Origin: an uncultured bacterium
Lineage (GTDB): Bacteria; Zhuqueibacterota; QNDG01; CAYUAG01
Assembly (NCBI GenBank): GCA_964515295.1
Contig: CAZETW010000003.1
Span: 4,768-68,767 of the forward strand
Direction of reading: 5' to 3'
Length of the DNA stretch: 64,000 nucleotides
The notes under the pieces: model-generated
The model's input: only the letters and a program-made list of their open reading frames with translations
What the model was told of the DNA's origin: nothing
The model's database searches: none
Made by a program: the position numbers and the translations under genes
Part shown: positions 7,489 to 60,747 of the stretch, in pieces
Numbering within the stretch: position 1 is the first letter of the stretch
Layout: each line of letters starts with the position of its first letter

Positions 7489-7517
7489 TATGGTATGTTA
7501 TTTGCTTGAATACCATA
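7489..7517. promoter_or_regulatory. 8-bp inverted repeat (TATGGTAT / ATACCATA, 13-nt spacer) preceded by T9 tract, upstream of wza-like gene
   Basis: Read directly: 7489-7496 tatggtat, 7510-7517 ataccata; T-run 7477-7485; lies in the 170-bp leader of the polysaccharide locus. Confidence 0.25.
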
Positions 7518-7548
7518 CTTAAGAGGAAAATAAAAGGAGAATGGTGGG

Positions 7549-8229: not shown

Positions 8230-8253
8230 CAATAATCTAAAAATGGTGTAGAA

Positions 8254-38189: not shown

Positions 38190-39554
38190 ATGAATTTTGA
38201 TGTTAGATGGTTAATTGCTGTAATTATCTTAATTGTAGGCACAATATTTTTTGCCTTCAGCCGGAAAAAGGAAATCTTTTTAACCAGAGCATTGATTTTT
38301 GTCATGCCCTTTGCAATTGGGTTTTATTATATTGCAGTATCGAGGGAAGAAGATGCAATTAATGCCTGCGATGTGATACTCCTTTTTCTTTATATTTACT
38401 GGTTTTGGGAAACAGATGGATTTAAATCTCAAAAAATATATTTTGATAAAATATTTTATTTATATACTGCTGTCATTATATGGATATTACTTCCTACAGT
38501 TATTGTCATTTCACCGTCAAGTTTACTGTTTGCTGCTTTTATGTGGATAAAATGTTTATTACTTTTCTTTTATGTTTCCAACAGAGTGAAAACAATGGAG
38601 CATTTAAAAGCCATTATTGATATGCTGATTATTATGCTGTTTATACAGGCGTTGATAGGTACTTTACAGAAGATATTAGGGCATACCTTAGGATTAGGTT
38701 TTTTAGGGGAAAGATCAAGTGTTTATTTAAGGGGGTTTACCCAGGCACGTGCCAGAGGTACATTGGGATTTCCTAATAAATATGCTGCCTATATGATTAT
38801 GCTGATGCCTCTCACAGTTACTATGTTTATATATTCAGAAAAAGGGATAAAAAAAATATGGTATTCACTTATTATTATTTTATCAAGTATGGGGTGGATC
38901 TTTTCTTTATCACGGTCTGCCTGGATAGGATTAGTCGGTGCTTTGGTAATAATATTTATTTTTATGACCAAAGCATCGAAGGTGAATTTAAAATCATTTT
39001 TACTGCTGTTGGTTATGGTAGCAATTATTTCTACAGTTATTATTTATTTTGCAGATCACGTTATGGGAAGGATCGAGATGACCGGCGACCAGCCCTATAG
39101 ATGGATAATGATGAGAAAGGCTGTTGAGTTAATGGGTTCCCATCCTGTATTTGGGGTTGGATTATGGAATTATCAGTTCCATTCGTATGGAGAGTTCAGA
39201 TACTGGCATGCGGTACATAATATGATTTTACGTCTGGGTGCAGAAATAGGAATTCCAGGATTACTAATATTTTTATCTATGTTATATAAAAATTTCAAAA
39301 ATTGTTTAATGACATTAAAATTCAAAAACAGATATTTAGAATATATAACATTAGGAATAATGGGTGGATTACTGGCATTTCTGCTTGCGGCTTTGTTTAA
39401 TCCTCAATTTCAGTCTTATCGTCATAAATTTTTATTTTGGTTTTTAATGGGATTGGCTGTGTCTGTTAAAAGAATTGGATTACATGAAGCATACTTAGAA
39501 TTCAAGAAAAGAAAAAAGAATCAGGCTTTGCAGGATAAGTTACCTGGGTTATAA
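38190..39554 (+). CDS. O-antigen ligase / polymerase family protein (Wzy_C domain)
   Basis: 454 aa, ~10-12 TM; Wzy_C signature region IFSLSRSAWIGLVGALVIIF and periplasmic loop HAVHNMILRLGAEIGIPG. Confidence 0.8.
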   Translation: MNFDVRWLIAVIILIVGTIFFAFSRKKEIFLTRALIFVMPFAIGFYYIAVSREEDAINACDVILLFLYIYWFWETDGFKSQKIYFDKIFYLYTAVIIWILLPTVIVISPSSLLFAAFMWIKCLLLFFYVSNRVKTMEHLKAIIDMLIIMLFIQALIGTLQKILGHTLGLGFLGERSSVYLRGFTQARARGTLGFPNKYAAYMIMLMPLTVTMFIYSEKGIKKIWYSLIIILSSMGWIFSLSRSAWIGLVGALVIIFIFMTKASKVNLKSFLLLLVMVAIISTVIIYFADHVMGRIEMTGDQPYRWIMMRKAVELMGSHPVFGVGLWNYQFHSYGEFRYWHAVHNMILRLGAEIGIPGLLIFLSMLYKNFKNCLMTLKFKNRYLEYITLGIMGGLLAFLLAALFNPQFQSYRHKFLFWFLMGLAVSVKRIGLHEAYLEFKKRKKNQALQDKLPGL

Positions 39555-44407: not shown

Positions 44408-45825
44408 TTCGTGGAACATTTTTGATGGTCATAGGCCAGGCATCTTTTATGCTTGCGTCCTTTGCAATTAATTTCGGGCTGGCACGTTTACTGGGTCCTA
44501 TTCATTACGGCACTTTTGGTCTGGTTATGTCTATTTTAGTAGCAATAGAACGGTTAGTGGTAACCGGAATACCTGAAATGATGCAGAAGTATGGCGGTGA
44601 AAGACCTGAGAGCATGTATATCCTTCAACAGAAAATGTTCCTCAGACAGCTTTTTTATAGTGTTATAATTTTTGGTGTTTTCTGGCTGGTGACGCCCCTG
44701 GTCTCGAAATTTTTTGCAGATAAAACCCTTACATTCTATTTGCGCATTGCATCTTTCGATATTATATTTTATGGTTTATATAAATTTTATCTGGGGATGC
44801 AGAATGGACTGCATCGTTTCAATCATCATGCATTGATGGCCATTACATATTCAGTTTCAAAAGTATGCGCTGTTTTTGGACTGGTTTTATCAGGATTATC
44901 ACTGACAGGTGCCCTGATAGGTAATGCTTTAGGTTCTGTAGGCGGTCTTATTCTGGGAATCATTATAACTCGTTTGCCCAGGGTTGAAGGTAAATGGGGC
45001 CATATTCCTTATTGTGAATTTATAATACCCAATATTTTATATTTTGTAGGTTTATTTTTATTCTTTTGTATTGACCTTTGGTTTGTAAAGTATTTTTTAG
45101 ATAAATTAGAAGTCGGGTATTATGTTTCTGCTTCAGCATTATCAAAAGTGCCTTACTTTACTTCTATAGCATTATCTGCGGCCTTGCTACCATCAGTCTC
45201 ATTTGCTACCAAAAAACAGGACAGGCAACGGGTTCATGCATTAGTACAACAGTCATTACGGTATATTTTTATGGGGCTGGTGATTATAAATATTTTTTTT
45301 ATAACCATGCCGTCTTCGCTAATACATATAGTTTTTGGTGCTGAATATTCCGGGGCTGCTGAGGTACTGCCAATATTGGGAATAGGACTTTCATTTTTAA
45401 CATTTTTTGCTGTGATGAATACTATTTTAATGGCTCGTAATCGAATGAAAAATATATTTATCATTACTTTCTTTGTCATTATTATTGATGTTGTGTGTAA
45501 TTATATTTTAGTACCCAGATATCATTTAATGGGAGCAGCTGTTTCGACTTCCATAGCAGCAGTTATAGGGACCCTGCTCAGCGGTATTAATGTGTTTTGG
45601 GATTTGAAAGTTTTTTTTCCTTTTCTTTCTTTCTTGCGTATAAGTGGAGTGGCTGCGGTTGTTTTTATACTTTCTTTATTTATTCCGGAACAGGGAATCT
45701 GGGTAGTCATAAAAATATTAAGTGTACCGGCTGTTTATTTTTTACTGCTGTGGGTAATTGGTGAACTTACAGAAATTGATTTTCGCCGGTTAAAAGAAAT
45801 TATACCAATAAAAGATTTTAAATAA
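44401..45825 (+). CDS. Wzx-like polysaccharide flippase (MOP superfamily), second copy
   Basis: 474 aa, ~12-14 TM helices. Confidence 0.7.
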   Translation: MLIRGTFLMVIGQASFMLASFAINFGLARLLGPIHYGTFGLVMSILVAIERLVVTGIPEMMQKYGGERPESMYILQQKMFLRQLFYSVIIFGVFWLVTPLVSKFFADKTLTFYLRIASFDIIFYGLYKFYLGMQNGLHRFNHHALMAITYSVSKVCAVFGLVLSGLSLTGALIGNALGSVGGLILGIIITRLPRVEGKWGHIPYCEFIIPNILYFVGLFLFFCIDLWFVKYFLDKLEVGYYVSASALSKVPYFTSIALSAALLPSVSFATKKQDRQRVHALVQQSLRYIFMGLVIINIFFITMPSSLIHIVFGAEYSGAAEVLPILGIGLSFLTFFAVMNTILMARNRMKNIFIITFFVIIIDVVCNYILVPRYHLMGAAVSTSIAAVIGTLLSGINVFWDLKVFFPFLSFLRISGVAAVVFILSLFIPEQGIWVVIKILSVPAVYFLLLWVIGELTEIDFRRLKEIIPIKDFK

Positions 45826-47888: not shown

Positions 47889-49133
47889 ATGAAAATCTTA
47901 ATGGCTAATAAATTTTATTTTGTAAAAGGAGGTTCAGAGAGATACTATTTTGAACTAACGGATATTTTAAAAGCACACGGACATGAGGTTATCCCGTTTT
48001 CTATGCATCATCCAGATAATTTTTCTACTCCCTATAGTTCCTCCTTTGTTGATTATATTGATTATGATCAGATTTCTGCTGATAAGAATCCAGTTCAGGG
48101 ATTATCAGCTTTATTGAGAATGATTTATTCAAGACAAGCAAAAAAGAAAATCAAAAAATTAATAGATAAAGTACGGCCTGATATTGCTCATGTTCATATG
48201 ATTGATCATCAATTGTCGCCTTCCATACTTGATGCCTTGCACGATTATGGTATTCCTGTAATACAGACAGTTCATCAGTATAAATTAGTATGTCCGAGCT
48301 ACCTTTTTTTTAACAACAGGACAAAGAAAGTATGCGAAAAATGCCTTGACGGACATTTTTACCATCCTATTGTTGAAAGATGTCATAAAAATTCAGCAGT
48401 GGCAGGATTGATGCTGGCCATTGAAAGTACGATTCACAAAAAGTTACAACTGTATGAAAAAAATATTAATATCTTTCATGTTCCCAGCTCTTTTATGGGG
48501 AAAAAATTAGTACAGGGAGGAGTGAATAAAAGAAAGATTGAGCATTTATTCTATTCTATAAATATTAATGATTATATTCCCAGCTATAAATCTGATGATT
48601 ATTTTGTTTATTGTGGCCGTCTGTCCATAGAAAAAGGAGTTATTACCTTATTAAAGGCGATGAAGAAGATCAGCAGCTCTCAGCTGATACTGGTTGGTGA
48701 CGGGCCTCAGCGGGAAGAATTGGAAAGGTTTGCTGTAGAGAATGGTTTACAAAATGTTTTTTTTGCTGGTTATAAATCCAGTGGTGAATTGAAAAATTTG
48801 ATTTCGAACTCAAAGTTTGTTGTGCAGCCTTCTGAGTGTTATGATAACTCTCCCTTGACTGCTTATGAATCCTTTGCTTTGGGGAAACCTGTGATTGGAT
48901 CCGATATCGGGGGAATACCGGAATTAATTAATGATCAGGAATGTGGATTGATTTTTGAACCTGGTAATTCTGAAATGTTAATTGAGAAAATCAATTATTT
49001 GTTACAGTCTCGGAGGCGACGATTAAATTTTGGTAAAAAAGCTCGACACAGAGCTGAAAAAGAATTCAGTCCTGAAGTTCATTATCAAAAATTGATTGAA
49101 ATATATAATAGGTTGATTTTCAAACATGAATGA
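47889..49133 (+). CDS. glycosyltransferase family 4
   Basis: 414 aa; GT4 C-domain YCGRLSIEKGV...ECYDNSPLTAYESFALGKPVIGSDIGGIPE. Confidence 0.8.
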   Translation: MKILMANKFYFVKGGSERYYFELTDILKAHGHEVIPFSMHHPDNFSTPYSSSFVDYIDYDQISADKNPVQGLSALLRMIYSRQAKKKIKKLIDKVRPDIAHVHMIDHQLSPSILDALHDYGIPVIQTVHQYKLVCPSYLFFNNRTKKVCEKCLDGHFYHPIVERCHKNSAVAGLMLAIESTIHKKLQLYEKNINIFHVPSSFMGKKLVQGGVNKRKIEHLFYSININDYIPSYKSDDYFVYCGRLSIEKGVITLLKAMKKISSSQLILVGDGPQREELERFAVENGLQNVFFAGYKSSGELKNLISNSKFVVQPSECYDNSPLTAYESFALGKPVIGSDIGGIPELINDQECGLIFEPGNSEMLIEKINYLLQSRRRRLNFGKKARHRAEKEFSPEVHYQKLIEIYNRLIFKHE

Positions 49134-50586
49134 CAACAGTAATAATATTAAAAAAATAATAATTAATTCAACATTTCTCTACGGGGCTGAGATTTACCGG
49201 AGAATTGTTAGAGTTGCTTTGGTTATTTTTGCTGCTCGTCTTTTAGGTGATGCAAATTACGGAAAATTTGCATTTGCAATGGTTCTGGTGAAATTCTTTT
49301 TAATTTTTTCCGATGCAGGAATACATCAGCTTCTGGTAAGAGAGTTAGCCCGGTTTAAAAAATATCAACAAAAATATATAGGAAATGCTATCCTTATAAA
49401 GATAGTATTATGCCTGATTACAACTATTGCCATTATTGTCATTATCAATTTATCCAATAAACCAGCAGATGTTATGTATACTGTATATTATTTTACAGTG
49501 AGTAATATTTTTGCTTCTTTTTCTTTAGTTTTTCAGTCAATATTTCAGGCACGGCAGAAAATGAAATATGTAGCGTATTCTAATATGATAGCGATTTCAA
49601 TAAGTTCTATTGGCGGAATCGGAATATTACTTATGGGAGGAGATCATGTAATACTTGCAATGATATTTGCTGCCGGAGCTTTTGTAAAACTTTGTTATTG
49701 TATATTTATAACTCTTAAAAAATTTATAAAAATTAAAATTTCATATGATTATAATGTAATAAAATTTATTCTTAAAGAAGGGATACCTATAGGTGTTAAT
49801 CTTATTCTTGCTACCATATATACTTTAATTGATCAGATTATGCTTTCGTATATCTGCAGTGATGAAGCAGTAGGCTGGTATAGGGCTGCTTATCAGTTTG
49901 TCTTTACCATGATGGTAATTCCTAATGAATTGGTAAAGGCAGCTTTCCCGGTTCTTTCAAAATATTTTGTCACCTCTATTGATGATTTAAAAGGTTTATT
50001 TAACAGATTGTTAAAATTTCTTCTTTTAATTTCACTATCATTATCAACATTATTATTTCTATTTTCTGATGATTTAATTATGCTGATATATGGAAATGAG
50101 TATATTATTGGTGCAAAAGCCTTGCGTATCTTAGTATGGTCAACCGGACTTATTTTTATTACCCTTATTTTTACCAATACAACCAGAGCAACAGACAGAC
50201 AACGATTTACTGCCAAAATTGTTATGATAGGAACAGTGATCAATATTGGGCTTAATATATTATTAATGCCACGCTATGGAGTAGTCGGAGCTGCAGCAAC
50301 AACATTAATAACAGAATTATTTGTTTTTACAGTCCATTATATATATCTGAGCGGTTATCTTTTCCGGCCTCCAGTATTTAGATTTCTTCCCAAGGTGTTA
50401 TTAATCAATGCCGTTATGGTTTTATCAGTATTTATTTTTAAAAGATTTGGGTTTTTTATATCATTTTTCCTGGCAATATTTGTTAATATAGCTATGATAT
50501 TTATCACTTCTTATTTTAATAAAAAAGAATTCGATTTCTTCAAAAATTTATTCTTAAGAGTAAAAAACAGAAGCAGGATCAAGTAA
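49126..50586 (+). CDS. Wzx-like polysaccharide flippase (MOP superfamily), third copy
   Basis: 486 aa, ~14 TM, Polysacc_synt-like. Confidence 0.75.
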   Translation: MNDNSNNIKKIIINSTFLYGAEIYRRIVRVALVIFAARLLGDANYGKFAFAMVLVKFFLIFSDAGIHQLLVRELARFKKYQQKYIGNAILIKIVLCLITTIAIIVIINLSNKPADVMYTVYYFTVSNIFASFSLVFQSIFQARQKMKYVAYSNMIAISISSIGGIGILLMGGDHVILAMIFAAGAFVKLCYCIFITLKKFIKIKISYDYNVIKFILKEGIPIGVNLILATIYTLIDQIMLSYICSDEAVGWYRAAYQFVFTMMVIPNELVKAAFPVLSKYFVTSIDDLKGLFNRLLKFLLLISLSLSTLLFLFSDDLIMLIYGNEYIIGAKALRILVWSTGLIFITLIFTNTTRATDRQRFTAKIVMIGTVINIGLNILLMPRYGVVGAAATTLITELFVFTVHYIYLSGYLFRPPVFRFLPKVLLINAVMVLSVFIFKRFGFFISFFLAIFVNIAMIFITSYFNKKEFDFFKNLFLRVKNRSRIK

Positions 50587-50671: not shown

Positions 50672-51871
50672 ATGAAAATTTTATATGTAAATTATCTTTA
50701 TGACGTTACACTCAGCTCTGTTGGTGCAGCTGTACATGTAAAAGAACTGGCTGAAGCATTGAGTACATTACATTATGATGTTAAGGTTTGTTTTTTAAAC
50801 CGGTTTACAGGAGTAGAAAAGTCAGAAAAAAGAACTTTGAGAACATTGTTAAAGCAGTACTTAGGCAGGTATGTAAGTAACCTACATGCACTATACTCAA
50901 ATATATATTATTTCTTACGCGAATGGAAACTCATTATGAAAGAAAGACCGGATATACTTCTTGTACGGTATAATATTTTTAATTTTTCTATTGCAATTGT
51001 TTGTAAAATTCTAAAGATTCCGTTTATACTGGAGATTAACTCTCCAATGGTTTATGAGAAAAAAGTTTTTAGAAGATCTGTTATTGATATGATCCTGATT
51101 GGATGGTTTCTGGAAAGGTTAATGATTCATTTTGCTGCAACTGTATATGTGGTTTCCAATCAATTAAAGCAGTATTATATTGAAAGAAATATAGATTCTG
51201 AAAAACTTCATGTTATCTTTAACGGAGTTGATGAGACAAAAATAAGCCCGTCTGTTTCTTCTAAGAAAGTAAGAATGAAATATAATTTACAGGGGAAAAA
51301 AGTATTGGGTTTTGTTGGTTCTTTTCATTATTGGCATGGTATTGAACAGCTTCAATCATTGCTGATGGATATACTTTTTAACTATGATCAGACAATGTTT
51401 TTATTGGTAGGAGACGGACCTTTAAAACAAAATATGGAAGATTTTATCAAAGAACACAGAATAACAGATAGGGTTGTTTTGCCCGGATATGTTACTTATA
51501 ATGACATTCCGGAATATCTTTCTGCTATGGATATAGTGCTTGCTCCTTATCCCAGACATAGAATTTTTTATTTTTCACCAATAAAATTATTTGAATATAT
51601 GGCTGCAGGCAAGAGTGTTGTAGCATCTTCTATCGGACAAATTAAGGAAATAATTGAAGATGGGGTTAACGGGATGCTTTTTCAGGCAGGGAATTATAAA
51701 GAGATGTTAGAAAAATCCACCTTGTTGTTAAAAAATAATTCTCTCCGGGAACGCATCGGAAAAGCAGCAAGAATGACAATTGAGAAGAATTATACCTGGA
51801 AACATACAGCAGAAAAACTTAAGCACATTATTGAACAGGATATTATGGGCAACAAATATGGAGTTATGTGA
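50672..51871 (+). CDS. glycosyltransferase family 4
   Basis: 399 aa; GT4 C-domain FSPIKLFEYMAAGKSVVASSIGQIKE. Confidence 0.8.
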   Translation: MKILYVNYLYDVTLSSVGAAVHVKELAEALSTLHYDVKVCFLNRFTGVEKSEKRTLRTLLKQYLGRYVSNLHALYSNIYYFLREWKLIMKERPDILLVRYNIFNFSIAIVCKILKIPFILEINSPMVYEKKVFRRSVIDMILIGWFLERLMIHFAATVYVVSNQLKQYYIERNIDSEKLHVIFNGVDETKISPSVSSKKVRMKYNLQGKKVLGFVGSFHYWHGIEQLQSLLMDILFNYDQTMFLLVGDGPLKQNMEDFIKEHRITDRVVLPGYVTYNDIPEYLSAMDIVLAPYPRHRIFYFSPIKLFEYMAAGKSVVASSIGQIKEIIEDGVNGMLFQAGNYKEMLEKSTLLLKNNSLRERIGKAARMTIEKNYTWKHTAEKLKHIIEQDIMGNKYGVM

Positions 51872-53025
51872 TGACGGATATCAACAGAAAAATTAATGTT
51901 TTTCAATTGGTGGAAGGATTTGGTCTGGGAGGAGCAGAGAAGAAATTACTTGAATTAGTTAAACGAATGGACAATAACCGCTTTAAGACTGTAATCTGTA
52001 GTCTTGGTTTGGAAGGATCAAGTGGTAATATTTCAAAGGATTTTGAAAAATTAAAAGAATATGGTATTGAAGTGTTTGAAATTCCCCGAAAACATCGTAT
52101 TGATTTTGATTTATTATATAAATTACTGCAGATAATAAAAAGCAGACGGATTGATGTTATCATGACTACTCTGTATTATGCTGATATTATGGGTGCAGTA
52201 ACCGGAACACTCGGAGGAGTGAAAGCGGTCTTTTTCTGGGAAACAATTTCTTCTCCAGAATGGCTTGTTCGCAGAAGATTTATTTCTTACAGAGCAGCAG
52301 TGAAGTTTTGTGATAAAGTAGTATCAGTATCTCAGAGAACGGCTGATTTTTTAGTTGAGGACAGAAAGATACATCCTGATAAAATTAAAATCATACCTTA
52401 TGGTGTGGATCTGAAGAAATACAGTAGTGGGAAAGGTCATAAGATAAGGGAAAAATTAGATATCAGCGAAAAAGATAAAATAATAGGAATGGTGGGCCGT
52501 TTAGTTACCCAGAAAGGTCATATTTATTTAATTGATGCTGCAGAAAGAATAGTAAAAGAATATCCGGATGTAAGATTTCTAATAATTGGTGAAGGTGAGT
52601 TGCGTTCAGATTTAGAAAAAAGAGTGAAGGACAGAAAATTGGATAATAATTTTATTTTTCTGGGATCCCGTGACGATGTACCTGATTTACTGAAAGTCAT
52701 AGATATATTCACGTTACCTTCTCTTTTCGAAGGGCTCCCAAATGTTGTATTAGAAGCCATGGCTTCGGGGAAACCAATTGTTGCAACCGCAGTTGACGGG
52801 ACAAAAGAGGCGGTGATACATGGCCAGACCGGTTTACTGGTACCCCTAAAAGATCCGGAGAAGCTGTCAGCAGCATTAATTGATCTCCTGGATAACCCTC
52901 AGAAAGCACTGGATTATGGGGGAAAAAGCAGAAAAAGAGCGGAAGAGTATTTTTCACTGGAACAACAGGTGAAAAGTTTTGAAGATTTATATGAAAAATA
53001 TTTTATTAAAAATTTAAGGAGTTAA
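51868..53025 (+). CDS. glycosyltransferase family 4
   Basis: 385 aa; VGRLVTQKG..., EGLPNVVLEAMASGKPIVATAVDGTKE. Confidence 0.85.
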   Translation: MMTDINRKINVFQLVEGFGLGGAEKKLLELVKRMDNNRFKTVICSLGLEGSSGNISKDFEKLKEYGIEVFEIPRKHRIDFDLLYKLLQIIKSRRIDVIMTTLYYADIMGAVTGTLGGVKAVFFWETISSPEWLVRRRFISYRAAVKFCDKVVSVSQRTADFLVEDRKIHPDKIKIIPYGVDLKKYSSGKGHKIREKLDISEKDKIIGMVGRLVTQKGHIYLIDAAERIVKEYPDVRFLIIGEGELRSDLEKRVKDRKLDNNFIFLGSRDDVPDLLKVIDIFTLPSLFEGLPNVVLEAMASGKPIVATAVDGTKEAVIHGQTGLLVPLKDPEKLSAALIDLLDNPQKALDYGGKSRKRAEEYFSLEQQVKSFEDLYEKYFIKNLRS

Positions 53026-53030
53026 AGGGT

Positions 53031-55880
53031 ATGGTACAATATACATCTTTTTATAGAAGAAAGTTTTTTAAATATGCAGTTATCACATCATCCATTTTTC
53101 TTTTACTTAATGCAAATATGTTAGCTCAGCATTTAGCTCATCAGGGGCATTCACATCCGCGGTCTGCAGTGTTCCATTTCAGTGGCCGGCAGCCCGAGTG
53201 GTATGCACGTTTTGATATGGTTATTACTCCGCTTACTCATGACGGGTTTGCTCAGTCTGTTCATGCAATCAATCCGGATTGTTATGTTCTTGCCTCCAGA
53301 GACTGGAATGTCGATGAGTTAATGGATATACCGGAAGAATGGCTTCTTAGAGATTCAAATGGTAATCCGGTACGAGCTTATGGAGGTCGAAGTAATTTAA
53401 TAGATATCACTGAGTACTGTTCAAAAAGCCCTGCGCATGGCGGTAAAAAGTACAATGAATTTTTACCAGTATATATGAGTACTCTTGTCGATTATTCCAT
53501 TTATGATGGCATTTGTTCACAGGGAGTATGGAATCATCCTTATAATACCGATGATGTTGATATAGATGGTAATGGAGTAAATGACTGGGAGGAACATGGG
53601 AAAAACTGGCTTATTAATGTATGGACTCAGGGAGTTGAAAAAGCTGTAGAAGTGTTACGCAATATAATTGGTGATGATAAAATTATTTTTTTAAATTCCG
53701 GGAATTTTCATACATTTGCATGGTATCATTCTAACGGTCTGATGAAAGAACGTTGTAATAAAACTTTTAATGTAAAATGGGAATTAAATAAGTTTTACCG
53801 GTGGGAGAGTTCTGCTCCCTATCCACATACTTTTTTCTTTAATTCCTGTGGACCATCTAAGAATGATTTTTATAATATGAGGTATTTCATTGGTAAAGCT
53901 CTGATGTATAATGCCTATTCCAGTTATACTGATTATGCATCCGGAGAACATCACTATACTAAATATTATGATGAATATGACATTAATCTAGGATTTTCCA
54001 CAGATAGTGTACGGCAGGTAACCTATAGTGAGATCAAAAATGAGCAGGGTATATGGGCAAAATTTTATGATAATGGAGCAGTTATTATTAACATGGATAA
54101 TTATAACAATACAATAACTGATGCTCAACTACAGACACTTGATTATTATGACGGACCATATTATCGGTTCTTAGGCGGGCAGGATCCTGAATTTAATAAC
54201 GGAGAATTGTTTACGGAAGTAACCCTTAGAGGAGAAGCACGATCTTTAGATCCACTGGGTTTTGTCGGTGATGCAATAATTTTATTGAAAGAACCTGATA
54301 CTGTGGTATCTGATATCATTATTGATGATATTGATGCCGGCACTTCTCCTGGGAGTAATGCGGCCAAATTTAAAGGAACCTGGACAAATTCAGCGGATAA
54401 TAATTATGCATTCTGGGGGGTGGGCGGAAGAGCTTACCGTAATCTGTATAATTATGCTAAAATTCAACCCGGACGGGGAGAAGCATATGCAGAATACATC
54501 CCCACTATTGGAGTACCGGGCAATTATGAAGTTTTTGAATGGCATGGATTCCTGGGAAGTAATGAGGAGACTATACAGGAAGCAACCAATGTTCCTGTTA
54601 TTATTAAATTTGCCGATAATGAAGTTGCAGAAGGCTTTATTGATCAATCCAAAGATTATAAACAGTGGAATAGTTTAGGTACGTATTATTTTACTAAAGG
54701 CACAAGCGGAGGGGTTAAGATAACCAATGATGCCGACGGACAAGTTATGGCAGATGCATTTAAATTTGTCTATAAAGGAGATGATCCTGATGACACTGTA
54801 CCACCTAATCCTCCGGAAAATTTACAGATGACTGACCATTCAGAGCATACTATAACTCTAACCTGGGATGCTCCCGGAGCTGCAAGTGACGGAGACGGTG
54901 CTGCAGCTTATCAGGTTTTCCGTAACGGACATTTGGTCGGAAGGCCTTTTGATACTACCTTTATTGATGAAGGATTATATGAAAATACCAATTATACCTA
55001 TGAAGTATACTCCATAGATAATGTAGGTAACAGAAGCTCCTCAAATATTCAGGATGTTTTTAAAACATATACAGATTATGTTCCTCCTGAAATCGTTCAT
55101 GCTCGCTTAATAAATGACACTAAACTGGAAATTCTTTTCAGTGAAAAGGTCGACCAGACAAGTGCTGAAACTCCTTCAAATTATGATGTTGACAATGGAA
55201 TTATAGTAGATAGTGTGGAAATGGACATTGCAGATTCAACTATGTATTATTTAACCACCAGTAAACATGTAGTCGGGGTTCATTACAGTGTTTCAGGACG
55301 TGATATTGTGGACCTGGCTTCAACCCCGAACAAGATAGATCCCAGTAAAACTGTGGAATATATCGGTATTACCGGTGATTCCTTAAGAATTACCATTACA
55401 GCGGATAATGTTTATAAGTTATATGTAAATGGTTATTATATTGCTGAAGCAGACGGGTGGAGTGATGCCGAGACTTATGAAATACCAACCATTGGTGGTA
55501 CGAATCTGATCGCAATTCAGGCAACTGACAGAGGAGGAGAAGCGGCAATCCTGGCAGAAATTGAATTTGGAAATGAGCAGTTTGTTACAAACGAGAATTG
55601 GAAAATTACAACATTCGAAGAAGCTGGATGGGAGACATTATCCTTTGAAGATGCGTTATGGGAATATGCTACAAGCTGGGGGCTACACGGCTCAGCTGAG
55701 CCCTGGGCAAAGTATACAGATGTTGAAGGTATTTCAACATCTTATCCTGTACACTGGATTTGGTCTTCTGATTATATAAATGATGATGTGGTGTATTTCA
55801 GGTTTACCCTGGATTATGAAGGCGATAATACAGCTCCTCAACCACCAGCGGATGTATCTGTAAACTCATCGTATCAATAA
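53031..55880 (+). CDS. secreted multidomain protein: putative glycoside-hydrolase-like TIM-barrel domain + FN3 + Ig-like + beta-sandwich carbohydrate-binding-like domain
   Basis: 949 aa; signal peptide; N-terminal ~450 aa resemble GH114/GHL15-type putative polysaccharide hydrolases; FN3 at ~aa 590-690 (ENLQMTDHSEHTITLTWDAP...YTYEVYSIDNVGNRS); C-terminal region with rhamnosidase-N/CBM-like LYVNGYYI motif. Confidence 0.55.
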   Translation: MVQYTSFYRRKFFKYAVITSSIFLLLNANMLAQHLAHQGHSHPRSAVFHFSGRQPEWYARFDMVITPLTHDGFAQSVHAINPDCYVLASRDWNVDELMDIPEEWLLRDSNGNPVRAYGGRSNLIDITEYCSKSPAHGGKKYNEFLPVYMSTLVDYSIYDGICSQGVWNHPYNTDDVDIDGNGVNDWEEHGKNWLINVWTQGVEKAVEVLRNIIGDDKIIFLNSGNFHTFAWYHSNGLMKERCNKTFNVKWELNKFYRWESSAPYPHTFFFNSCGPSKNDFYNMRYFIGKALMYNAYSSYTDYASGEHHYTKYYDEYDINLGFSTDSVRQVTYSEIKNEQGIWAKFYDNGAVIINMDNYNNTITDAQLQTLDYYDGPYYRFLGGQDPEFNNGELFTEVTLRGEARSLDPLGFVGDAIILLKEPDTVVSDIIIDDIDAGTSPGSNAAKFKGTWTNSADNNYAFWGVGGRAYRNLYNYAKIQPGRGEAYAEYIPTIGVPGNYEVFEWHGFLGSNEETIQEATNVPVIIKFADNEVAEGFIDQSKDYKQWNSLGTYYFTKGTSGGVKITNDADGQVMADAFKFVYKGDDPDDTVPPNPPENLQMTDHSEHTITLTWDAPGAASDGDGAAAYQVFRNGHLVGRPFDTTFIDEGLYENTNYTYEVYSIDNVGNRSSSNIQDVFKTYTDYVPPEIVHARLINDTKLEILFSEKVDQTSAETPSNYDVDNGIIVDSVEMDIADSTMYYLTTSKHVVGVHYSVSGRDIVDLASTPNKIDPSKTVEYIGITGDSLRITITADNVYKLYVNGYYIAEADGWSDAETYEIPTIGGTNLIAIQATDRGGEAAILAEIEFGNEQFVTNENWKITTFEEAGWETLSFEDALWEYATSWGLHGSAEPWAKYTDVEGISTSYPVHWIWSSDYINDDVVYFRFTLDYEGDNTAPQPPADVSVNSSYQ

Positions 55881-55918: not shown

Positions 55919-56611
55919 ATGATTATATCTCATAAATATAAATTTATCTTTCTTAAGACAAACAAAACAGCGGGCACAAGTGTTGAAATTGCTTTATCAA
56001 AATTTTGTGGTCCAAATGATATTATTACACCTGTTACCAGAGAAGATGAGAAAACAAGAAAAAAATTTGGTTATCCTGGTCCGCAAAATTGTCTGGCGCC
56101 TGTAACAGATTATGGTTTGAGAGACTGGATCCGTTTAATTGTAAAAGCAAGAAGAAAACTTACCTATTATAATCATATTTCTGCTGTTAAGGTAAAAAAA
56201 TTAATCGGAGAAGAAATTTGGAATAATTATTTTAAATTTTGTATTGAACGGAATCCCTGGGATCGTTTTCTGTCATTTTATTACTGGATCAATCAGTCTG
56301 AACCGCGTCCGACAATTTTGGATTTTGTCAACTCAAAAGTTCCCTTAATACTCAAGAGACGAGGATTTGAAGTCTACACCATTAATGGAAAGATTGCTGT
56401 GGATAAAGTTTGTTTTTTTGAAAACCTGAAAGAGGATTTAGAAGAAGTGAGGATCCGGATAGGATTACCTGAAAAGTTAGATCTGCCCAGAGCCAAGTCT
56501 ACCTACAGAAAAGACAGACGAAGCTATCGTGAAGTATTAAATGAAAATGAGAGAAATAAAATAAAACAATTATTCAATCAGGAAATTTCGTATTTTGGCT
56601 ATGAGTTTTAA
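55919..56611 (+). CDS. sulfotransferase, galactose-3-O-sulfotransferase-like family
   Basis: 230 aa; 5'-PSB-like FIFLKTNKTAGTSV (cf. Gal3ST FLKTHKTASST); 3'-PB-like RNPWDRFLSFYY. Confidence 0.6.
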   Translation: MIISHKYKFIFLKTNKTAGTSVEIALSKFCGPNDIITPVTREDEKTRKKFGYPGPQNCLAPVTDYGLRDWIRLIVKARRKLTYYNHISAVKVKKLIGEEIWNNYFKFCIERNPWDRFLSFYYWINQSEPRPTILDFVNSKVPLILKRRGFEVYTINGKIAVDKVCFFENLKEDLEEVRIRIGLPEKLDLPRAKSTYRKDRRSYREVLNENERNKIKQLFNQEISYFGYEF

Positions 56612-57540
56612 ACAAATTTTTTGTAATCTGTCTTAACAGTATATGGTAAGGTTAATAATGAAGTTAAAAATTTTAAGGTTTTGTTAAGATTGATTTGATT
56701 GTCTTTTTTTATAACGATAGAATTTTTGAATCTGTCAGGATTACCTGATAGATCATGTCTTACTTTTTTAAAATTAATTTTTCTGTTTGTCAATATATCA
56801 TCAACAGTATCATCTATCCCGATAAAATTGAATACTTGTTTAAGTTCTTTATTTGGGTTCTCTAAAAATTTTTCTAAATAAAGTTTATAATAATTTGTAT
56901 TATGGAAAAATTTTTCACTGAAAAGATTAAGTCTGATGTAATTTTCACAGGATTTTAAAAATGGTCTGTTACCCATTGTAATACTTCTATCTTTTGTAAC
57001 AACCTGTTTTTTCTTTTTATAACTGGCAGAATAGATAGCACCTCTGGGGTTTCTAATGACGTGTAAATAATAAACCTTGAAATCAGGCATATAGTTAAGC
57101 AGAATACCATATAAATAGTGCTTAGAACTATCAACAATTATTTTCTTATCGGAATTAAACACTATGGAATTATATATATTATTTAATAATAAAATATAGT
57201 CTTTAAAATAATTCTTAACATAGTTAATATATAATTTGTTAATTGGCAGGTATGGTAAAATCTTGAGTATTGTATGGTGTGTTGTTATATCATACTTTTT
57301 ATTGTTATAGAATTCATTCTTATCATTGACAGGTAAATGTATAGTTTCAAAAACATTGTTCCAGAATGTACAAGTATGAAAATCGGAGCCGCAGTTACAT
57401 TGCCAGTTTTCCTTAAATCCCCTATGCCACAAATACCAGAATTCCCCTATGCTCATTATCTGATCATTTTCATTCAGAATATTACTGATTAAAGTGGATC
57501 CGCTCCGTACCATTCCGCTAATATACACTATTTTTTTCAT
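56608..57540 (-). CDS. sulfotransferase (PAPS P-loop RSGST type, Stf0/Sulfotransfer_3-like)
   Basis: 310 aa; VYISGMVRSGSTLISNIL 5'-PSB loop. Confidence 0.65.
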   Translation of the reverse strand: MKKIVYISGMVRSGSTLISNILNENDQIMSIGEFWYLWHRGFKENWQCNCGSDFHTCTFWNNVFETIHLPVNDKNEFYNNKKYDITTHHTILKILPYLPINKLYINYVKNYFKDYILLLNNIYNSIVFNSDKKIIVDSSKHYLYGILLNYMPDFKVYYLHVIRNPRGAIYSASYKKKKQVVTKDRSITMGNRPFLKSCENYIRLNLFSEKFFHNTNYYKLYLEKFLENPNKELKQVFNFIGIDDTVDDILTNRKINFKKVRHDLSGNPDRFKNSIVIKKDNQINLNKTLKFLTSLLTLPYTVKTDYKKFV

Positions 57541-57569
57541 GAAATTATCCTTACACTGGGAGCGTTATT

Positions 57570-58184
57570 TTATACTTTGTTTTTTATATCAGTAATAATG
57601 TTTTTTAATTTTTTTGCGATTTTACGATGTACCCGTTCTTCTTTTTTACGAACTTCAGCTTTGTTTCTATGGGGAAAAAGAATATTCGGGATTTCTTTCT
57701 CTAAAAAAGGACAAAGTTTTTGCCAGCCTTCTGCTTTAATTAAATCTAAAATCAACAAGTCATTCGGGCGGTTTTTAAAATAAGCTAAAACGTCTTTATT
57801 ATGATTTTCATATTTTTTAATGTATATCTCTTCATTGCCTTTAGGACAGCCAACACCGTATATCCATTTTCTCATCGGAGTTTTTCTTCTACCAAAATGG
57901 CTTACCATACTTTTAATCCATGAATCAGTATTTCTTACTGTAAGAATAAATTTACTGCCAGGATATGATTTGTCCATTTCTTTATAAATTATAGGCCAGG
58001 GATTATCCTGAAATGCATCATATTGTTTAACCAGATTATGGGCCATGGTATACACATTCTGAGCAATTTTTGAGTCTTTTACTCCATTGGGACCCGTAAT
58101 GCTATAGCCGAGTTTTGAAAGTGCAGTTGCAAGAGATTTTGTTCCGGTTTTGTGAAAGCCGATACAGAATATTTTAGTTTTCAT
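57570..58184 (-). CDS. sulfotransferase family protein (small bacterial Sulfotransfer_4-like)
   Basis: 204 aa; IFCIGFHKTGTKSL (5'-PSB-like) and TVRNTDSWIKS (3'-PB-like R...S). Confidence 0.55.
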   Translation of the reverse strand: MKTKIFCIGFHKTGTKSLATALSKLGYSITGPNGVKDSKIAQNVYTMAHNLVKQYDAFQDNPWPIIYKEMDKSYPGSKFILTVRNTDSWIKSMVSHFGRRKTPMRKWIYGVGCPKGNEEIYIKKYENHNKDVLAYFKNRPNDLLILDLIKAEGWQKLCPFLEKEIPNILFPHRNKAEVRKKEERVHRKIAKKLKNIITDIKNKV

Positions 58185-58593
58185 GAAAATTTCCTTTTTT
58201 TATCACTTAACATTCAATTTTATTAATTCAGGAAAGTAAAATAATAAAAAATTTCAAAAAAAACAATCATAAAACCATCTCAGATATTTCATCATAGGTA
58301 TGATTTTTGCTTGTTAAATATTTGATAATATATAAATTGGTTGATCAATAAGAATGGGCATAAAAAAATAGTATAATCAGGTATATTTTTTAAAAAAATA
58401 TTGACAATTATTTATTATTAAAAAGGTTATAAATAATTCATTGATTGATAGTAATAATTTTTAACAGTTGTTAAAAATACCAAGAAAAAATGAGAAAATT
58501 TATTTTATGAAAAATCTTTCATATTGAATGACAGGTAAATGTGCAGTATAACGATGAAAAAGTATACCATAAATTACTTTAAGGTGAAATAAA
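58185..58593. promoter_or_regulatory. 409-bp AT-rich divergent intergenic region between sulfotransferase genes (-) and sugar-binding MCP-domain gene (+)
   Basis: No ORF >60 aa; TTGACA at ~58401; RBS AGGTGA 8 nt before ATG 58594. Confidence 0.3.
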
Positions 58594-60747
58594 ATGGCTA
58601 ATGTATATAAGAATATTTTGAAACAAGGGAAAATATTATTAAAAGATCTGAATAACTGGAAGAATGCCATGGCCAATCTTTCTCAAGGAGATCTTTCCAC
58701 TTGCCTTGCTATTGAAGCCAATCCTGTGAAAATACCAGATACCCAGAAGAAAACACAATTGAGTATACTGAACCAGATCATCAGTAATTTGCATGAAGTA
58801 GCAGCTGAATTTAATTTAGTTACTGATAAACCATGTAAAAGATTGTGTTATGTGGGTGGAGATTCATTTCTGGAAGGGCAGCGATGTGGTGAATTTATGG
58901 GTAAAATTCTTAATGGCAAAGGTCAGGTGGCAGTCGTAACAAATGTTTTTGGCTATGCAAGTACTGAATTAAGACGTAAGGGATTAGAATCAGTTTTTAA
59001 GACCTTATTTCCAGGAATACATATTGTCGATATTATCGAAAGTCGTGACAGTACAGAAATAAGTTATAAAAAAACAACATCATTGATTAAAAAACATTCA
59101 CATTTAAATGGCATATATATTTGTGAAGGTGCAACCCCTCATGCTGTAGCACAAGCGGTTATTGATGCTGAAAAAAAGGATAAAATAAAAATAATAGCAC
59201 ATGACCTGACCAGTACCATCATTGAGTTCATTGAAAAAGGTGTAATAACCGCAGTACTTGATGAAAACCCATATGCTCAGGGATTTAATCCGGTTATTCA
59301 TCTTTTTAATCATCTTGTAGATGATTGGGAACCTCACGTTCCACGACTGCTCACTGATATGAAGTTTGTAACCCAAAAGAATTATCATAAATACTGGAAT
59401 GAAGAAAAAAAATTAATTCAGTCTCAGGATAGTCTGGATAGGCTGGCAAAACCGGTAGACAAGAAACCTTCCAAACCTATTCGCATTGCAATGATGGGCA
59501 GAGTTGATTGTGAATTCTGGTTGCCGGTTAAGGAGGGTTCTCTCGCTGCCAAAAAGTTATTAGAGACCAAAGAAAATGTTCAGGTTGACTTAATTATACC
59601 TGAAGAAAACAGAACCAAGGGACTATTTGGTCCAGATGTATTTGTACCTGCATTCAAAAAACTTATCCAGGAAAAATATGATGGTATCGGTGTTATTGCA
59701 TCAGATGCAGAACTGGTCCCGCATATTAACCGTGCAGTTGAAACCGGAATACCAGTGGTTACTTTGAACAGTGAACCTTTCAATCTGCGCAGTTTGATGC
59801 TGTCTATTACAGATCAGGCTGATAAACTTATGGGCTTAAGTGATCAGTTATCCGTGAGCACCACTGAAACAAAAGCAATGACATCAAACATAAATACAGC
59901 CATGGATGAAATGTACCAGGGAACGCTGTCACAGAATGAAAATGTAAAGAAAACCCAAGATACGTTAAATTATTTACTGAAAAATATTAAAACAGTTAAT
60001 GAAGAAACTGAAGAAAATACCAAAACTGCTGAGGAAACTGTCAAAGCAGTTACCAGCGGCACTATGGCAATGCAGAAAACTATTGAGAGTCTCCGCATGG
60101 TAGAAAATTCTGTATCTGATTCCTGGCAGGTAGTTGAAGAATTAGGAGATTATTCCAATAAAATTGATAAAATTATGTGGTTTATCAATGATATCGCCAC
60201 AGAAATAAATATCCTGGGATTAAATGCCAATCTGGTTTCAGTAAAAGCAGGTAAGTACGGAAAAAGTTTTGGTGTGGTAGCCAGTGAAATACGTAAAATG
60301 GTGCAGGAGACCAAGGATCATACAACAGAAATTTTTAATCTGATTGAAATGTTTAAAGAAGGGATAAAAAAGGTAGAAAATGTAATGAATTCCGGATTGG
60401 AGAAGATCAAAAGTTCAGCGAGTTTATCAGATGAAGCAGTCTCAGCAATAAAAGATATTCGCGAATATGTTACCCTTAATCAAGAACGTATGAATAAAAT
60501 TTCATCTTCTTTAAATGAAATTGAAACGTTTTCTCAAGATGTTGATGTTGCCATGCACAATGTGACAAGTGTAAGTGAACAGAATGCTGCGGAAGTGGGA
60601 AAGGTGAATAATTATACCAAAGAGATGGAACGCCAGTTAAATACTGTAGAATCAATGACTAAAACATTATTGCAGATGGCTGAATCAGAAAAACAGCAGC
60701 TGGCAAAGTTTAATGTTGCTGAAAAAGATCAATATCACCGGCCTTAG
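58594..60747 (+). CDS. soluble chemoreceptor-like protein: periplasmic-binding-protein (sugar-binding, type I) fold + methyl-accepting chemotaxis protein signalling domain, no TM segment
   Basis: 717 aa; N-terminal LacI/RbsB-like PBP halves (aa ~80-290 and ~300-400); C-terminal MCP highly conserved region ILGLNANLVSVKAGKYGKSFGVVASEIRKMVQETKD; no hydrophobic helix. Confidence 0.75.
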   Translation: MANVYKNILKQGKILLKDLNNWKNAMANLSQGDLSTCLAIEANPVKIPDTQKKTQLSILNQIISNLHEVAAEFNLVTDKPCKRLCYVGGDSFLEGQRCGEFMGKILNGKGQVAVVTNVFGYASTELRRKGLESVFKTLFPGIHIVDIIESRDSTEISYKKTTSLIKKHSHLNGIYICEGATPHAVAQAVIDAEKKDKIKIIAHDLTSTIIEFIEKGVITAVLDENPYAQGFNPVIHLFNHLVDDWEPHVPRLLTDMKFVTQKNYHKYWNEEKKLIQSQDSLDRLAKPVDKKPSKPIRIAMMGRVDCEFWLPVKEGSLAAKKLLETKENVQVDLIIPEENRTKGLFGPDVFVPAFKKLIQEKYDGIGVIASDAELVPHINRAVETGIPVVTLNSEPFNLRSLMLSITDQADKLMGLSDQLSVSTTETKAMTSNINTAMDEMYQGTLSQNENVKKTQDTLNYLLKNIKTVNEETEENTKTAEETVKAVTSGTMAMQKTIESLRMVENSVSDSWQVVEELGDYSNKIDKIMWFINDIATEINILGLNANLVSVKAGKYGKSFGVVASEIRKMVQETKDHTTEIFNLIEMFKEGIKKVENVMNSGLEKIKSSASLSDEAVSAIKDIREYVTLNQERMNKISSSLNEIETFSQDVDVAMHNVTSVSEQNAAEVGKVNNYTKEMERQLNTVESMTKTLLQMAESEKQQLAKFNVAEKDQYHRP

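Follow-up and report, generated by a model that had tools for sequence, protein, structure and literature searches.

The window analysed here, a 64-kb stretch of DNA from an uncultured bacterium, carries a polysaccharide locus of the Wza/Wzc/WbaP/Wzx/Wzy type, ~50 kb long and complete in its gene set, which is closed by three adjacent sulfotransferase genes. On the plus strand lie a Wza/OPX gene (Poly_export, 7549–8229), a Wzc-like PCP (GNVR/AAA_31, 8254–10539), a WbaP-like priming transferase (Bac_transf, 12234–13667), a Wzy gene (Wzy_C, 38190–39554) and a Wzx-type flippase (49126–50586), along with two further Wzx genes (23307–24785 and 44401–45825). The rest of the plus-strand stretch from 7549 to 49133 holds about 13 GT2/GT4 genes and three PMT_2/GT-C genes, one of which (32827–34362) is on the minus strand, as well as two AsnB-like amidotransferases, two methyltransferases, and epimerases/dehydratases including RmlD. 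Past the flippase at 49126 come two GT4 glycosyltransferases (50672–51871 and 51868–53025, plus strand), for a total of about 15 glycosyltransferases in the locus. Priming transferase, glycosyltransferases, Wzx, Wzy, PCP, OPX and sulfotransferases are all found in this one locus, which has three flippases and may make more than one product. A STAS-domain protein (6675–7379) was considered as a clue to sulfate transport and rejected, as it has neither a transporter domain nor TM segments.

The last glycosyltransferases are followed by a 949-aa secreted protein (53031–55880, plus strand) with an N-terminal signal/anchor-like hydrophobic segment, Golvesin_C and fn3 domains, and a GHL15-like region that scores below the Pfam cut-off. 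This protein stands directly upstream of the first sulfotransferase in every relative seen, and may serve the distal module by processing or binding the glycan. The sulfotransferases come after it and the two GT4 genes, just where the preliminary description had put them, and the genes beyond (MCP, SPOR, YebC, RuvC, RuvA) are unrelated, so the trio marks the distal end of the polysaccharide locus.

Exactly three ORFs occupy positions 55919–58184, each scoring above its Pfam curated cut-off, which bears out the earlier claim of three adjacent sulfotransferases from three families. These are ST-A (55919–56611, plus strand, 230 aa; Sulfotransfer_2, PF03567), ST-B (56608–57540, minus strand, 310 aa; Sulfotransfer_1/_3) and ST-C (57570–58184, minus strand, 204 aa; Sulfotransfer_4, PF17784). 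All are predicted to be cytoplasmic sulfotransferases, with neither a signal peptide nor a membrane segment predicted in any of them. The signatures first quoted for them are also in place, namely FLKTNKTAGTS (ST-A residues 11–21), RSGST (ST-B 12–16), and HKTGTKSL and RNTDSW (ST-C 11–18 and 84–89).

The three genes fall into two transcriptional groupings. ST-A starts 39 nt past the preceding plus-strand gene and is therefore probably co-transcribed with the glycan operon. ST-C is the first gene of a two-gene minus-strand operon, separated by a 29-nt spacer from ST-B, which is preceded by a Shine-Dalgarno-like AAGGA and whose stop overlaps the convergent ST-A stop by 4 nt. Between ST-C and the divergent MCP gene lies an AT-rich intergenic region of 409 nt (58185–58593), presumed from the gene orientation to be the ST-C/ST-B promoter region. 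Scanned for promoters and terminators, the surroundings of the trio gave only consensus-level promoter matches, not above shuffle expectation, and an Rfam scan of the whole window returned zero matches. The G+C content of ST-B (26.8%) is the lowest in the region, but its GC3 resembles that of its neighbours, and a foreign origin of the sulfotransferases is unsupported by composition.

ST-A scores 46.6 bits on Sulfotransfer_2 (cut-off 22). Its 5'-PSB, K13-x-x-K16-T-A-G-T-S21, has K13 and K16-TAGTS invariant in 33–37 homologues, and its 3'-PB, R111-N-P113-W-D-R116-F-L-S119, aligns with RNPKDCLVS of SULT1C3 and conforms, as P113-x-x-R116-x-x-S119, to the PF03567 consensus PxxRxxS (PMC11625862). 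When PDB sequences were searched with the single sequence of ST-A or ST-B, only noise came back, and we used family profiles and predicted structures instead. The AF2 models of ST-A and ST-B (pLDDT 92 and 81) have the sulfotransferase alpha/beta fold, and their best structural neighbours in Foldseek are all sulfotransferases. For ST-A, the top fold matches to the model are carbohydrate (heparan sulfate) O-sulfotransferases of animals (HS6ST 5t03, 3-OST-5 3bd9, HS2ST 3f5f; Sulfotransfer_1/_2), at 13–17% identity. These, however, are Golgi type II membrane proteins that act on the finished polymer, whereas ST-A is a minimal 230-aa soluble protein predicted to be cytoplasmic. A Gal3ST identity of ST-A, as its first label 'Gal3ST-like' would have it, was rejected: ST-A has no match to PF06990 (Gal-3-O_sulfotr) at E ≤ 0.1, and the only PF06990 match is that of ST-B, at 13 bits, below the cut-off of 27.

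ST-B scores 38.1 bits on Sulfotransfer_1 (PF00685, cut-off 22) and 38.5 bits on Sulfotransfer_3 (PF13469, cut-off 27). By both profile and fold its closest solved relatives are the sulfotransferase domains of CurM and olefin synthase (4gbm, 4gox) and the tyrosylprotein sulfotransferases; the family profile recovers 4gox at 1.6e-20 and 4gbm at 2.6e-15 with the motifs aligned. The invariant 5'-PSB R12-S-G-S-T16 aligns with RSGSTLL of 4gox/4gbm, and the 3'-PB R163-N-P-R166...S171 with R-H-P-Y-A-V-I-E-S of 4gox, RSGSTLL and R-x-P-x-A-V-x-x-S being shared with these relatives as a group. The acceptors of the latter are ACP-bound acyl chains or protein tyrosine. Unlike them, ST-B is stand-alone, stands in a glycan context, and has an extra invariant Cys triad (C48/C50/C57) and an equally invariant GNPDR motif (G266-N-P-D-R270), besides an invariant H262 and a VDSSK motif (136–140). 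Only 10 ST-B homologues were found in the word index, the sister genome's at 87% identity and the next best at 33%.

ST-C is the strongest match of the three, with 122.7 bits on Sulfotransfer_4 (cut-off 22.8). Its 5'-PSB, H11-K-T-G-T-K-S17, in which K12-TGTKS is conserved at ≥ 95%, aligns with RTGT(A/K)SL of 8y9p and 4mua, and its 3'-PB, R84-N-T-D-S-W89...S92, aligns with VRDPVQWHRS of 8y9p. Both PAPS motifs are covered in the alignment of ST-C with SgdX2 (8y9p) and the Schistosoma oxamniquine-activating sulfotransferase (4mua), and ST-C shares PF17784 and aligned PAPS motifs with these and with Cpz8 (9kf1/9kf2). All of these are small-molecule sulfotransferases, whereas the surroundings of ST-C are those of a glycan locus; the literature searched ascribes no sulfation of glycans to PF17784.

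Across the family alignments of the trio, the PSB Lys/Arg and the PB Arg/Ser are invariant. Invariant His residues also occur, as sequence positions in these alignments, at H86 of ST-A, H262 of ST-B (with H160 nearly invariant) and H11/H128/H172 of ST-C. Against a sister genome, dN/dS lies between 0.07 (ST-B) and 0.12 (ST-C) for all three genes, and purifying selection on them is strong. Judged by sequence, the trio are genuine, selectively maintained sulfotransferases from three families.

In the sister genome (L001), the genes stand in the same order gene for gene, at 85–89% protein identity, so the arrangement of the trio is not due to chance. A distant relative (L009) keeps the block Wzx, GT4, GT4, 949-aa protein, ST-A and ST-C at 71–81% identity. 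In a scan of GTDB representatives the closest relative of the window stands at 79%, and for PurH the best 50%-cluster representative is 56% identical. Further afield, the immediate neighbours of ST-A homologues (71 GTDB loci, 134 ORFs) are enriched in other sulfotransferases, with 10 ST_3, 7 ST_1 and 6 ST_2 matches, the ST_1 and ST_3 counts overlapping because a single protein can match both models. The same neighbour set is enriched also in GT4 (9), GT2 (6), Wzx (5) and Wzy (3). Of 79 distinct GTDB loci that we examined, at least 31 hold two or more sulfotransferases. At L085, homologues of ST-A and ST-C, 61% identical each, are adjacent in a Wzx/GT4 locus with two further sulfotransferases; at L086, an ST-C homologue lies within a Wzy/Wzx locus; and at L087, the nearest distant ST-B homologue sits between Wzx and Wzy. 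More generally, ST-C and its close homologues (60–75% identity) adjoin Wzx/Wzy/GT genes. Homologue contexts number 6,277 for ST-A and 2,090 for ST-C.

We consider it likely that the trio are active, cytoplasmic enzymes that use PAPS to sulfate the heteropolysaccharide made by the adjacent Wzx/Wzy locus, or one of several made there. The WbaP-like transferase would prime undecaprenyl phosphate, the GT2/GT4 enzymes would assemble the repeat unit at the cytoplasmic face, and ST-A, ST-B and ST-C would each take sulfate from PAPS and place it at a separate position of the lipid-linked oligosaccharide, a hydroxyl (or amino) group. The sulfated unit would then be flipped by Wzx, most likely the one at 49126, before polymerization by Wzy and export of the polymer by Wzc/Wza. 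Here we infer the acceptor, the timing before flipping, the sharing of one polymer by the three enzymes, and a supply of PAPS from genes outside the window. The preliminary description had proposed a sulfated glycan, and that proposal is strengthened by the Wzx/Wzy/GT context in which homologues occur in other genomes; from its genes, the organism probably makes a sulfated surface polysaccharide.

Several observations count against sulfation of a polysaccharide by all three enzymes. ST-B and ST-C form an operon of their own that runs in the opposite direction and faces a chemoreceptor gene; the possible making of more than one product counts in the same direction, as do the solved relatives of ST-B and ST-C, which act on small molecules, acyl-ACP or protein. 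The trio could be genuine sulfotransferases of which some or all, and above all the ST-C/ST-B pair, have an acceptor other than a polysaccharide, for instance a glycolipid or lipo-oligosaccharide, a small metabolite or a protein, their position at the edge of the locus being partly incidental. Such a role is in keeping with the solved Sulfotransfer_4 members, which are small-molecule enzymes, with the PKS domains and tyrosylprotein sulfotransferases closest to ST-B, and with NodH and Stf0, which work on glycolipids (PMC11625862). An acceptor that is conserved independently of the glycan would also fit the identity levels across phyla, where ST-A and ST-C are ~60% identical while the neighbouring glycosyltransferases are 22–32% identical. 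However, all three families recur within Wzx/Wzy/GT loci of unrelated genomes, the window has no genes for the biosynthesis of small molecules nearby (PKS, NRPS or other), the glycan genes and ST-A probably share a transcript, and the best fold matches of ST-A are carbohydrate sulfotransferases. On balance we regard a non-polysaccharide acceptor as unlikely, though it is the strongest competitor to polysaccharide sulfation.

The supply of PAPS bears on whether the enzymes are in use. As was first remarked from inspection of the window, PAPS-synthesis genes are lacking there: none of the 47 scanned ORFs matches APS_kinase, ATP-sulfurylase or PAPS_reduct, and tblastn of the window with E. coli CysC/CysN/CysD gave a best E of 0.45. 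The Pfam scan took in ORFs of ≥ 120 aa and left out YebC, RuvC, RuvA and two ORFs overlapping larger opposite-strand genes. PAP-phosphatase and sulfate-uptake genes were likewise not found in the 64-kb window. In one paper, PAPS genes together with sulfotransferases at one locus are taken as the hallmark of sulfated-polysaccharide clusters (PMC11641403), of which the window presents half, sulfotransferases being there and cysC/cysDN/sat not, and this too counts against the polysaccharide reading. PAPS-synthesis genes do adjoin homologues in Frateuria (L088), Anabaena (L089), Nitrospira (L008) and Oceanobacillus (L046). In Frateuria soli, the ST-A homologue is accompanied by Wzx, two more sulfotransferases, a CysD-like gene and a CysN-CysC fusion; in Anabaena UHCC 0187, the ST-C homologue is accompanied by APS kinase, Wzx and GT2.

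It might then be that the genes are idle, the organism making no PAPS or too little for a sulfated product, as the 64-kb window without PAPS genes would allow and as the dedicated cysDN/cysC copies kept beside sulfotransferases by several other carriers (our loci; PMC11641403) would lead one to ask. This we hold to be very improbable in view of the strong purifying selection on the trio, the PAPS-binding residues, which are all intact, and the arrangement, which is kept in two further lineages. Moreover, PAPS genes of the housekeeping kind as a rule lie apart from the genes for enzymes that consume PAPS, and the synechan cluster region is likewise without annotated PAPS genes. Finally, the notion that the three are other P-loop nucleotide-binding enzymes (kinases) sharing short motifs by chance is effectively refuted already and retains next to no probability, the Pfam profile search having placed all three in sulfotransferase rather than other P-loop families. 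Two refuting outcomes named in the preliminary description, assignment to P-loop families other than sulfotransferases and motifs that fail to align with PAPS-binding residues, were checked for, and neither came about.

Among known systems, the closest comparison is with the xss cluster of Synechocystis sp. PCC 6803, which makes the sulfated exopolysaccharide synechan (PMC8205485). Both systems are Wzx/Wzy-dependent, with a priming transferase, many glycosyltransferases and a PCP, and in both the cytoplasmic sulfotransferases number at least two and belong to distinct subfamilies; in the validated model for synechan, modification takes place on the cytoplasmic side ahead of Wzx, and in both models the lipid-linked unit would be sulfated before flipping. 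XssE and the ST-B family are remotely related (hhalign probability 97%, E 1e-11). In contrast to the three sulfotransferases of the window, the xss region, as scanned here, has two, both PF13469/PF00685, and the PF03567 and PF17784 enzymes have no xss counterpart. In addition, xss has STAND and two-component regulators of the XssQ/R/S type, whereas the scanned window ORFs have no response-regulator, histidine-kinase or NACHT/STAND Pfam matches, and the OPX (Wza) gene lies inside the locus here but elsewhere on the chromosome in Synechocystis. Synechan is a known sulfated polymer, whereas the product of the window is predicted from its genes.

Outside the cyanobacteria, Vibrio sp. KMM 8419 (PMC11641403) has a polysaccharide cluster in which three sulfotransferase genes occur, and the structure of its product proves it to be a sulfated glycan. 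That cluster differs in being an ABC transporter (Kps-type) CPS system with a second cysNDC copy, as opposed to Wzx/Wzy without PAPS genes, and its likeness to ours is one of gene count and context. Sulfated capsules with sulfotransferase clusters outside the cyanobacteria are described in PMC11641403, PMC11766843 and PMC7356697, a further example being Cobetia marina KMM 1449 (PMC11766843). Given these capsules and the frequency of multi-sulfotransferase glycan loci in environmental genomes, the rarity ascribed to such systems in the preliminary description was overstated. Rhizobial NodH/NodPQ and mycobacterial Stf0 likewise represent bacterial cytoplasmic PAPS-dependent sulfation of carbohydrate-containing molecules, and the CysD and CysN/C pair beside the ST-A homologue in Frateuria is a dedicated, NodPQ-like one. 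The acceptors of NodH and Stf0 are, however, a lipo-chitooligosaccharide or trehalose, as against the Wzx/Wzy polymer proposed here, and in NCBIfam, similarity to nodulation sulfotransferases is limited to NoeE and negligible (13.6 bits, cut-off 500). The locus thus extends an already described kind of system and overturns nothing.

To a more speculative suggestion we give somewhat less than an even chance: ST-A (PF03567, 230 aa) and ST-C (PF17784, ~200 aa) may form a horizontally mobile two-gene sulfation cassette, spread at ~60% identity through Wzx-dependent loci of many phyla (Planctomycetota, Verrucomicrobiota, Nitrospirota, Desulfobacterota, Cyanobacteriota and Gammaproteobacteria, besides the present deep-branching lineage) and serving a conserved sugar acceptor whatever the glycosyltransferases. 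If so, Sulfotransfer_4, known so far from small-molecule enzymes only, would be a major unrecognized polysaccharide sulfotransferase family, and sulfated exopolysaccharides would be widespread in uncultured non-cyanobacterial bacteria. Sulfated polysaccharides are valued biomaterials, and in biofilms and sediments they influence hydration, the binding of metals and the turnover of carbon; to our knowledge, the acceptor is proven for few of the bacterial enzymes that sulfate polysaccharides. The locus adds a clear case from outside the model organisms studied so far. More useful still are two types of sulfotransferase, very well conserved and found in company with flippase and glycosyltransferase genes. 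These types occur also in cultured, tractable strains, Frateuria soli (CP088252.1, 282–301 kb) and Anabaena sp. UHCC 0187, where the predicted sulfation is directly testable.

Exactly three open reading frames fill window positions 55919-58184 and, as the preliminary description had proposed, they encode three sulfotransferases, each scoring above the curated Pfam-A cut-off of a different family. ST-A (55919-56611, plus strand, 230 aa) matches Sulfotransfer_2 with 46.6 bits (cut-off 22), ST-B (56608-57540, minus strand, 310 aa) matches both Sulfotransfer_1 with 38.1 bits (cut-off 22) and Sulfotransfer_3 with 38.5 bits (cut-off 27), and ST-C (57570-58184, minus strand, 204 aa) matches Sulfotransfer_4 with 122.7 bits (cut-off 22.8). 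The motifs first quoted for these proteins were found at their N-termini, and RNTDSW in ST-C. The label 'Gal3ST-like' for ST-A was not borne out: PF06990 gives no match to this protein, and matches ST-B alone, at a sub-threshold 13 bits. An NCBIfam scan of the three added nothing specific.

The superfamily is defined by a Lys/Arg in the 5'-phosphosulfate-binding (PSB) motif, a Ser in the 3'-phosphate-binding (PB) helix and a beta-sheet architecture that binds the sulfate donor PAPS (PMC11625862). The proposed PAPS-binding motifs align to those of solved enzymes in ST-B and ST-C, and at the 3'-PB in ST-A. By sequence, ST-C aligns to the solved Sulfotransfer_4 structures SgdX2 (8y9p, E 2.7e-10) and a Schistosoma sulfotransferase (4mua), with PSB and PB in register. 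When the profile of the 11-member ST-B family (alignment A1) was searched against solved structures, it matched the sulfotransferase domains of an olefin synthase (E 1.6e-20) and CurM (E 2.6e-15) as well as tyrosylprotein sulfotransferases, with RSGSTLL and the R-x-P-x-A-V-x-x-S helix aligned; the predicted ST-B model (pLDDT 80.7) had 17 significant Foldseek matches, all of them sulfotransferases. The ST-A profile match to solved structures was weak (E 0.13), its aligned part being precisely the 3'-PB (veRnPwdkvislY vs vaRNPKDCLVSYY of SULT1C3); ST-A also conforms to the PxxRxxS consensus of PF03567. Outside the canonical PAPS motifs, the ST-B family (members down to 19% identity) keeps an invariant CxC-x6-C triad (C48, C50, C57), H262 and a G-N-P-D-R motif (266-270), residues that could possibly form a metal site.

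The plus-strand glycan operon probably ends with ST-A, whose start lies 39 nt past the stop codon of the 949-aa gene upstream (same strand) and is preceded by a purine-rich stretch. On the minus strand, ST-C and ST-B make up a two-gene unit of their own, with a 29-nt spacer containing AAGGA before ST-B; it starts from a 409-nt AT-rich region that it shares with a divergent chemoreceptor gene. ST-A and ST-B converge, with a 4-nt overlap of their stop codons. Scans for consensus promoters and terminators around these genes gave results no better than shuffles. Nei-Gojobori dN/dS values against the sister genome were 0.10 (ST-A), 0.07 (ST-B) and 0.12 (ST-C), so strong purifying selection acts on each of the genes. 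No hydrophobic stretch that could serve as signal peptide or membrane anchor occurs in any of the three proteins, which should therefore act in the cytoplasm, where PAPS occurs.

The polysaccharide locus of ~50 kb (7549-58184) makes up most of the window, 47 of whose 52 ORFs >=120 aa were covered by our Pfam scan (omitted were YebC, RuvC, RuvA and two antisense-overlapping ORFs). It encodes Wza/OPX, a Wzc-like co-polymerase, a WbaP-like priming transferase, ~15 GT2/GT4 glycosyltransferases, three PMT_2/GT-C proteins, two AsnB-like amidotransferases, two methyltransferases and several epimerases/dehydratases including RmlD. Three Wzx-type flippases (23307-24785, 44401-45825 and 49126-50586, all plus strand) accompany a sole Wzy (38190-39554, plus strand) in this single co-directional locus, which suggests two or three glycan pathways, or side-branch modules, joined end to end. 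Among the Wzy and PMT_2/GT-C genes sits one for a 559-aa protein with ~12 TM-like segments (34543-36222, plus strand), which has no Pfam match even at E <= 1 and no detectable similarity to the PMT_2 paralogues.

The sulfotransferases do lie at the distal end of the locus, as initially described; beyond them lie the genes for a chemoreceptor, a SPOR protein, YebC, RuvC and RuvA. The chemoreceptor (MCP; 58594-60747, plus strand, 717 aa), divergent to the ST-C/ST-B operon, combines two Peripla_BP_4 (sugar-binding-protein-like) stretches with an MCP signalling domain and has no TM-like segment, and therefore would be soluble; its position is kept in the sister metagenomic contig L001. The secreted 949-aa protein (53031-55880, plus strand; 11663-14509 in L001 and 7112-9937 in the more distant relative L009) has a near-full-length but sub-threshold match to GHL15 (hypothetical glycoside hydrolase), Golvesin_C and fn3 matches, and weak C-terminal similarity to a rhamnosidase. 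Its gene is directly upstream of ST-A in all three related lineages, and it may be the hydrolase that processes the polymer.

The reading of this locus as one for a sulfated polysaccharide is supported by sequence, by structure prediction and by the comparative context. In a Wzx/Wzy-dependent pathway, the three soluble sulfotransferases would draw on cytoplasmic PAPS and, before the undecaprenyl-diphosphate-linked repeat unit is flipped, sulfate different positions on it, as has been modelled for synechan (PMC8205485). We infer the acceptor and the timing of sulfation here, as we do the choice between one polymer and several acceptors. With three flippases to one Wzy, the region may encode more than one product. 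The conserved block at the distal end, which comprises the Wzx at 49126, two GT4 genes, ST-A, ST-C and the gene for the secreted 949-aa protein, is the most likely functional partner of the sulfotransferases.

A Wzx/Wzy polysaccharide locus with several sulfotransferases is an already known type of system. The closest validated one is the xss cluster for synechan, the sulfated EPS of Synechocystis sp. PCC 6803, both of whose sulfotransferases, fetched and scanned here, belong to PF13469/PF00685. A remote relationship links XssE, but not XssA, to the ST-B family (hhalign 97%, E 1e-11 for XssE); ST-A and ST-C have no counterpart in the cluster, and its XssQRS regulators have none in the window. 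Outside the cyanobacteria, Vibrio sp. KMM 8419 has a structurally proven sulfated capsule, with three sulfotransferases and a second cysNDC copy, and PAPS genes together with sulfotransferases are considered the hallmark of such clusters by its authors (PMC11641403); the window has the sulfotransferase half alone. That bacteria other than cyanobacteria have the potential to make sulfated glycans is already recognised, from Pontiella (PMC7356697), Shark Bay mat MAGs (PMC9723792) and granular-sludge EPS (PMC10483923). In the literature searched, PF17784 appears only in a sulfotransferase-family table, in connection with other organisms or, reportedly, with small-molecule sulfation by gut bacteria, and no polysaccharide role for it turned up; such a role, putative here, would therefore be new.

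In L001 the genes stand in the same order (GT4-GT4-949aa-STA-STB-STC-MCP-SPOR-YebC-RuvCAB), their proteins being 83-93% identical to those of the window. L009 (uncultured bacterium, GCA_964442615.1) retains Wzx-GT4-GT4-949aa-STA-STC at 71-81% identity, with ST-C co-directional with ST-A and different flanks, and is without ST-B, which is thus a lineage-specific addition or loss. Of the three, ST-B is also found least often: the word index gave 10 homologues, of which the next best after that of the sister genome has 33% identity. For ST-A and ST-C, homologues number in the thousands, spread over many phyla at 57-75% identity. Among 134 Pfam-scanned ORFs directly flanking ST-A homologues in 71 GTDB loci, the families seen most often were Sulfotransfer_3 (10), GT4 (9), Sulfotransfer_1 (7), GT2 (6), Sulfotransfer_2 (6), Wzx (5) and Wzy (3), and by HMMs built here at least 31 of 79 distinct GTDB loci hold two or more sulfotransferase genes within ~10 kb. 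One locus (L085) has adjacent ST-A and ST-C homologues (61% each) in a Wzx/GT4 setting with two more sulfotransferases and a PMT_2 gene, its glycosyltransferases being merely 22-32% identical to those of the window; another (L086) groups an ST-C homologue and two additional sulfotransferases with Wzx, Wzy and a GT, and in a third (L087) the 33% homologue of ST-B lies between Wzx and Wzy. The cross-phylum conservation of ST-A and ST-C is far above that of neighbouring glycosyltransferases and also above the 56% peak of PurH, and could reflect horizontal spread as a small cassette or a conserved acceptor. That peak is the identity of the best 50%-identity cluster representative, among 1.84 billion proteins, to PurH (1808-3484, plus strand), and, being so low, it makes the host look like a deep-branching lineage that has been sampled only sparsely.

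The absence of PAPS-synthesis genes from the window, also noted at the outset, held among the ORFs scanned, which include no APS kinase, ATP sulfurylase or CysD/N, nor CysQ or a sulfate transporter; tblastn of the window with E. coli CysC/N/D (NC_000913.3) found nothing. The gene just upstream of wza (6675-7379, plus strand) encodes a 234-aa protein with a STAS domain. Having no transporter domain and no TM segment, this protein was rejected as a sulfate transporter; it probably regulates the locus in the manner of an anti-sigma antagonist. Elsewhere, linkage of the sulfotransferases to PAPS synthesis recurs among homologue loci, and this survey is most useful for pointing to cultured strains in which the same sulfotransferases could be tested by experiment, namely Frateuria soli and Anabaena sp. 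UHCC 0187, with close ST-A (60%) or ST-C (75%) homologues in Wzx/GT loci that have PAPS-synthesis genes dedicated to them. The complete Frateuria soli genome (CP088252.1:282326-301018) holds contiguous genes for Wzx, ST_3, the ST-A homologue, ST_1/3, a CysD-like protein and a CysN-CysC fusion. In Anabaena (VILB01000033.1), the ST-C homologue is flanked by APS-kinase genes, Sulfotransfer_3, Wzx and GT2, and the contig carries mobilisation genes (Mob_Pre relaxase, integrase, ParA/McdB), which suggests that the locus is on a mobile element. A Nitrospira MAG and Oceanobacillus arenosus likewise have CysC no more than 4 kb from an ST-A homologue.
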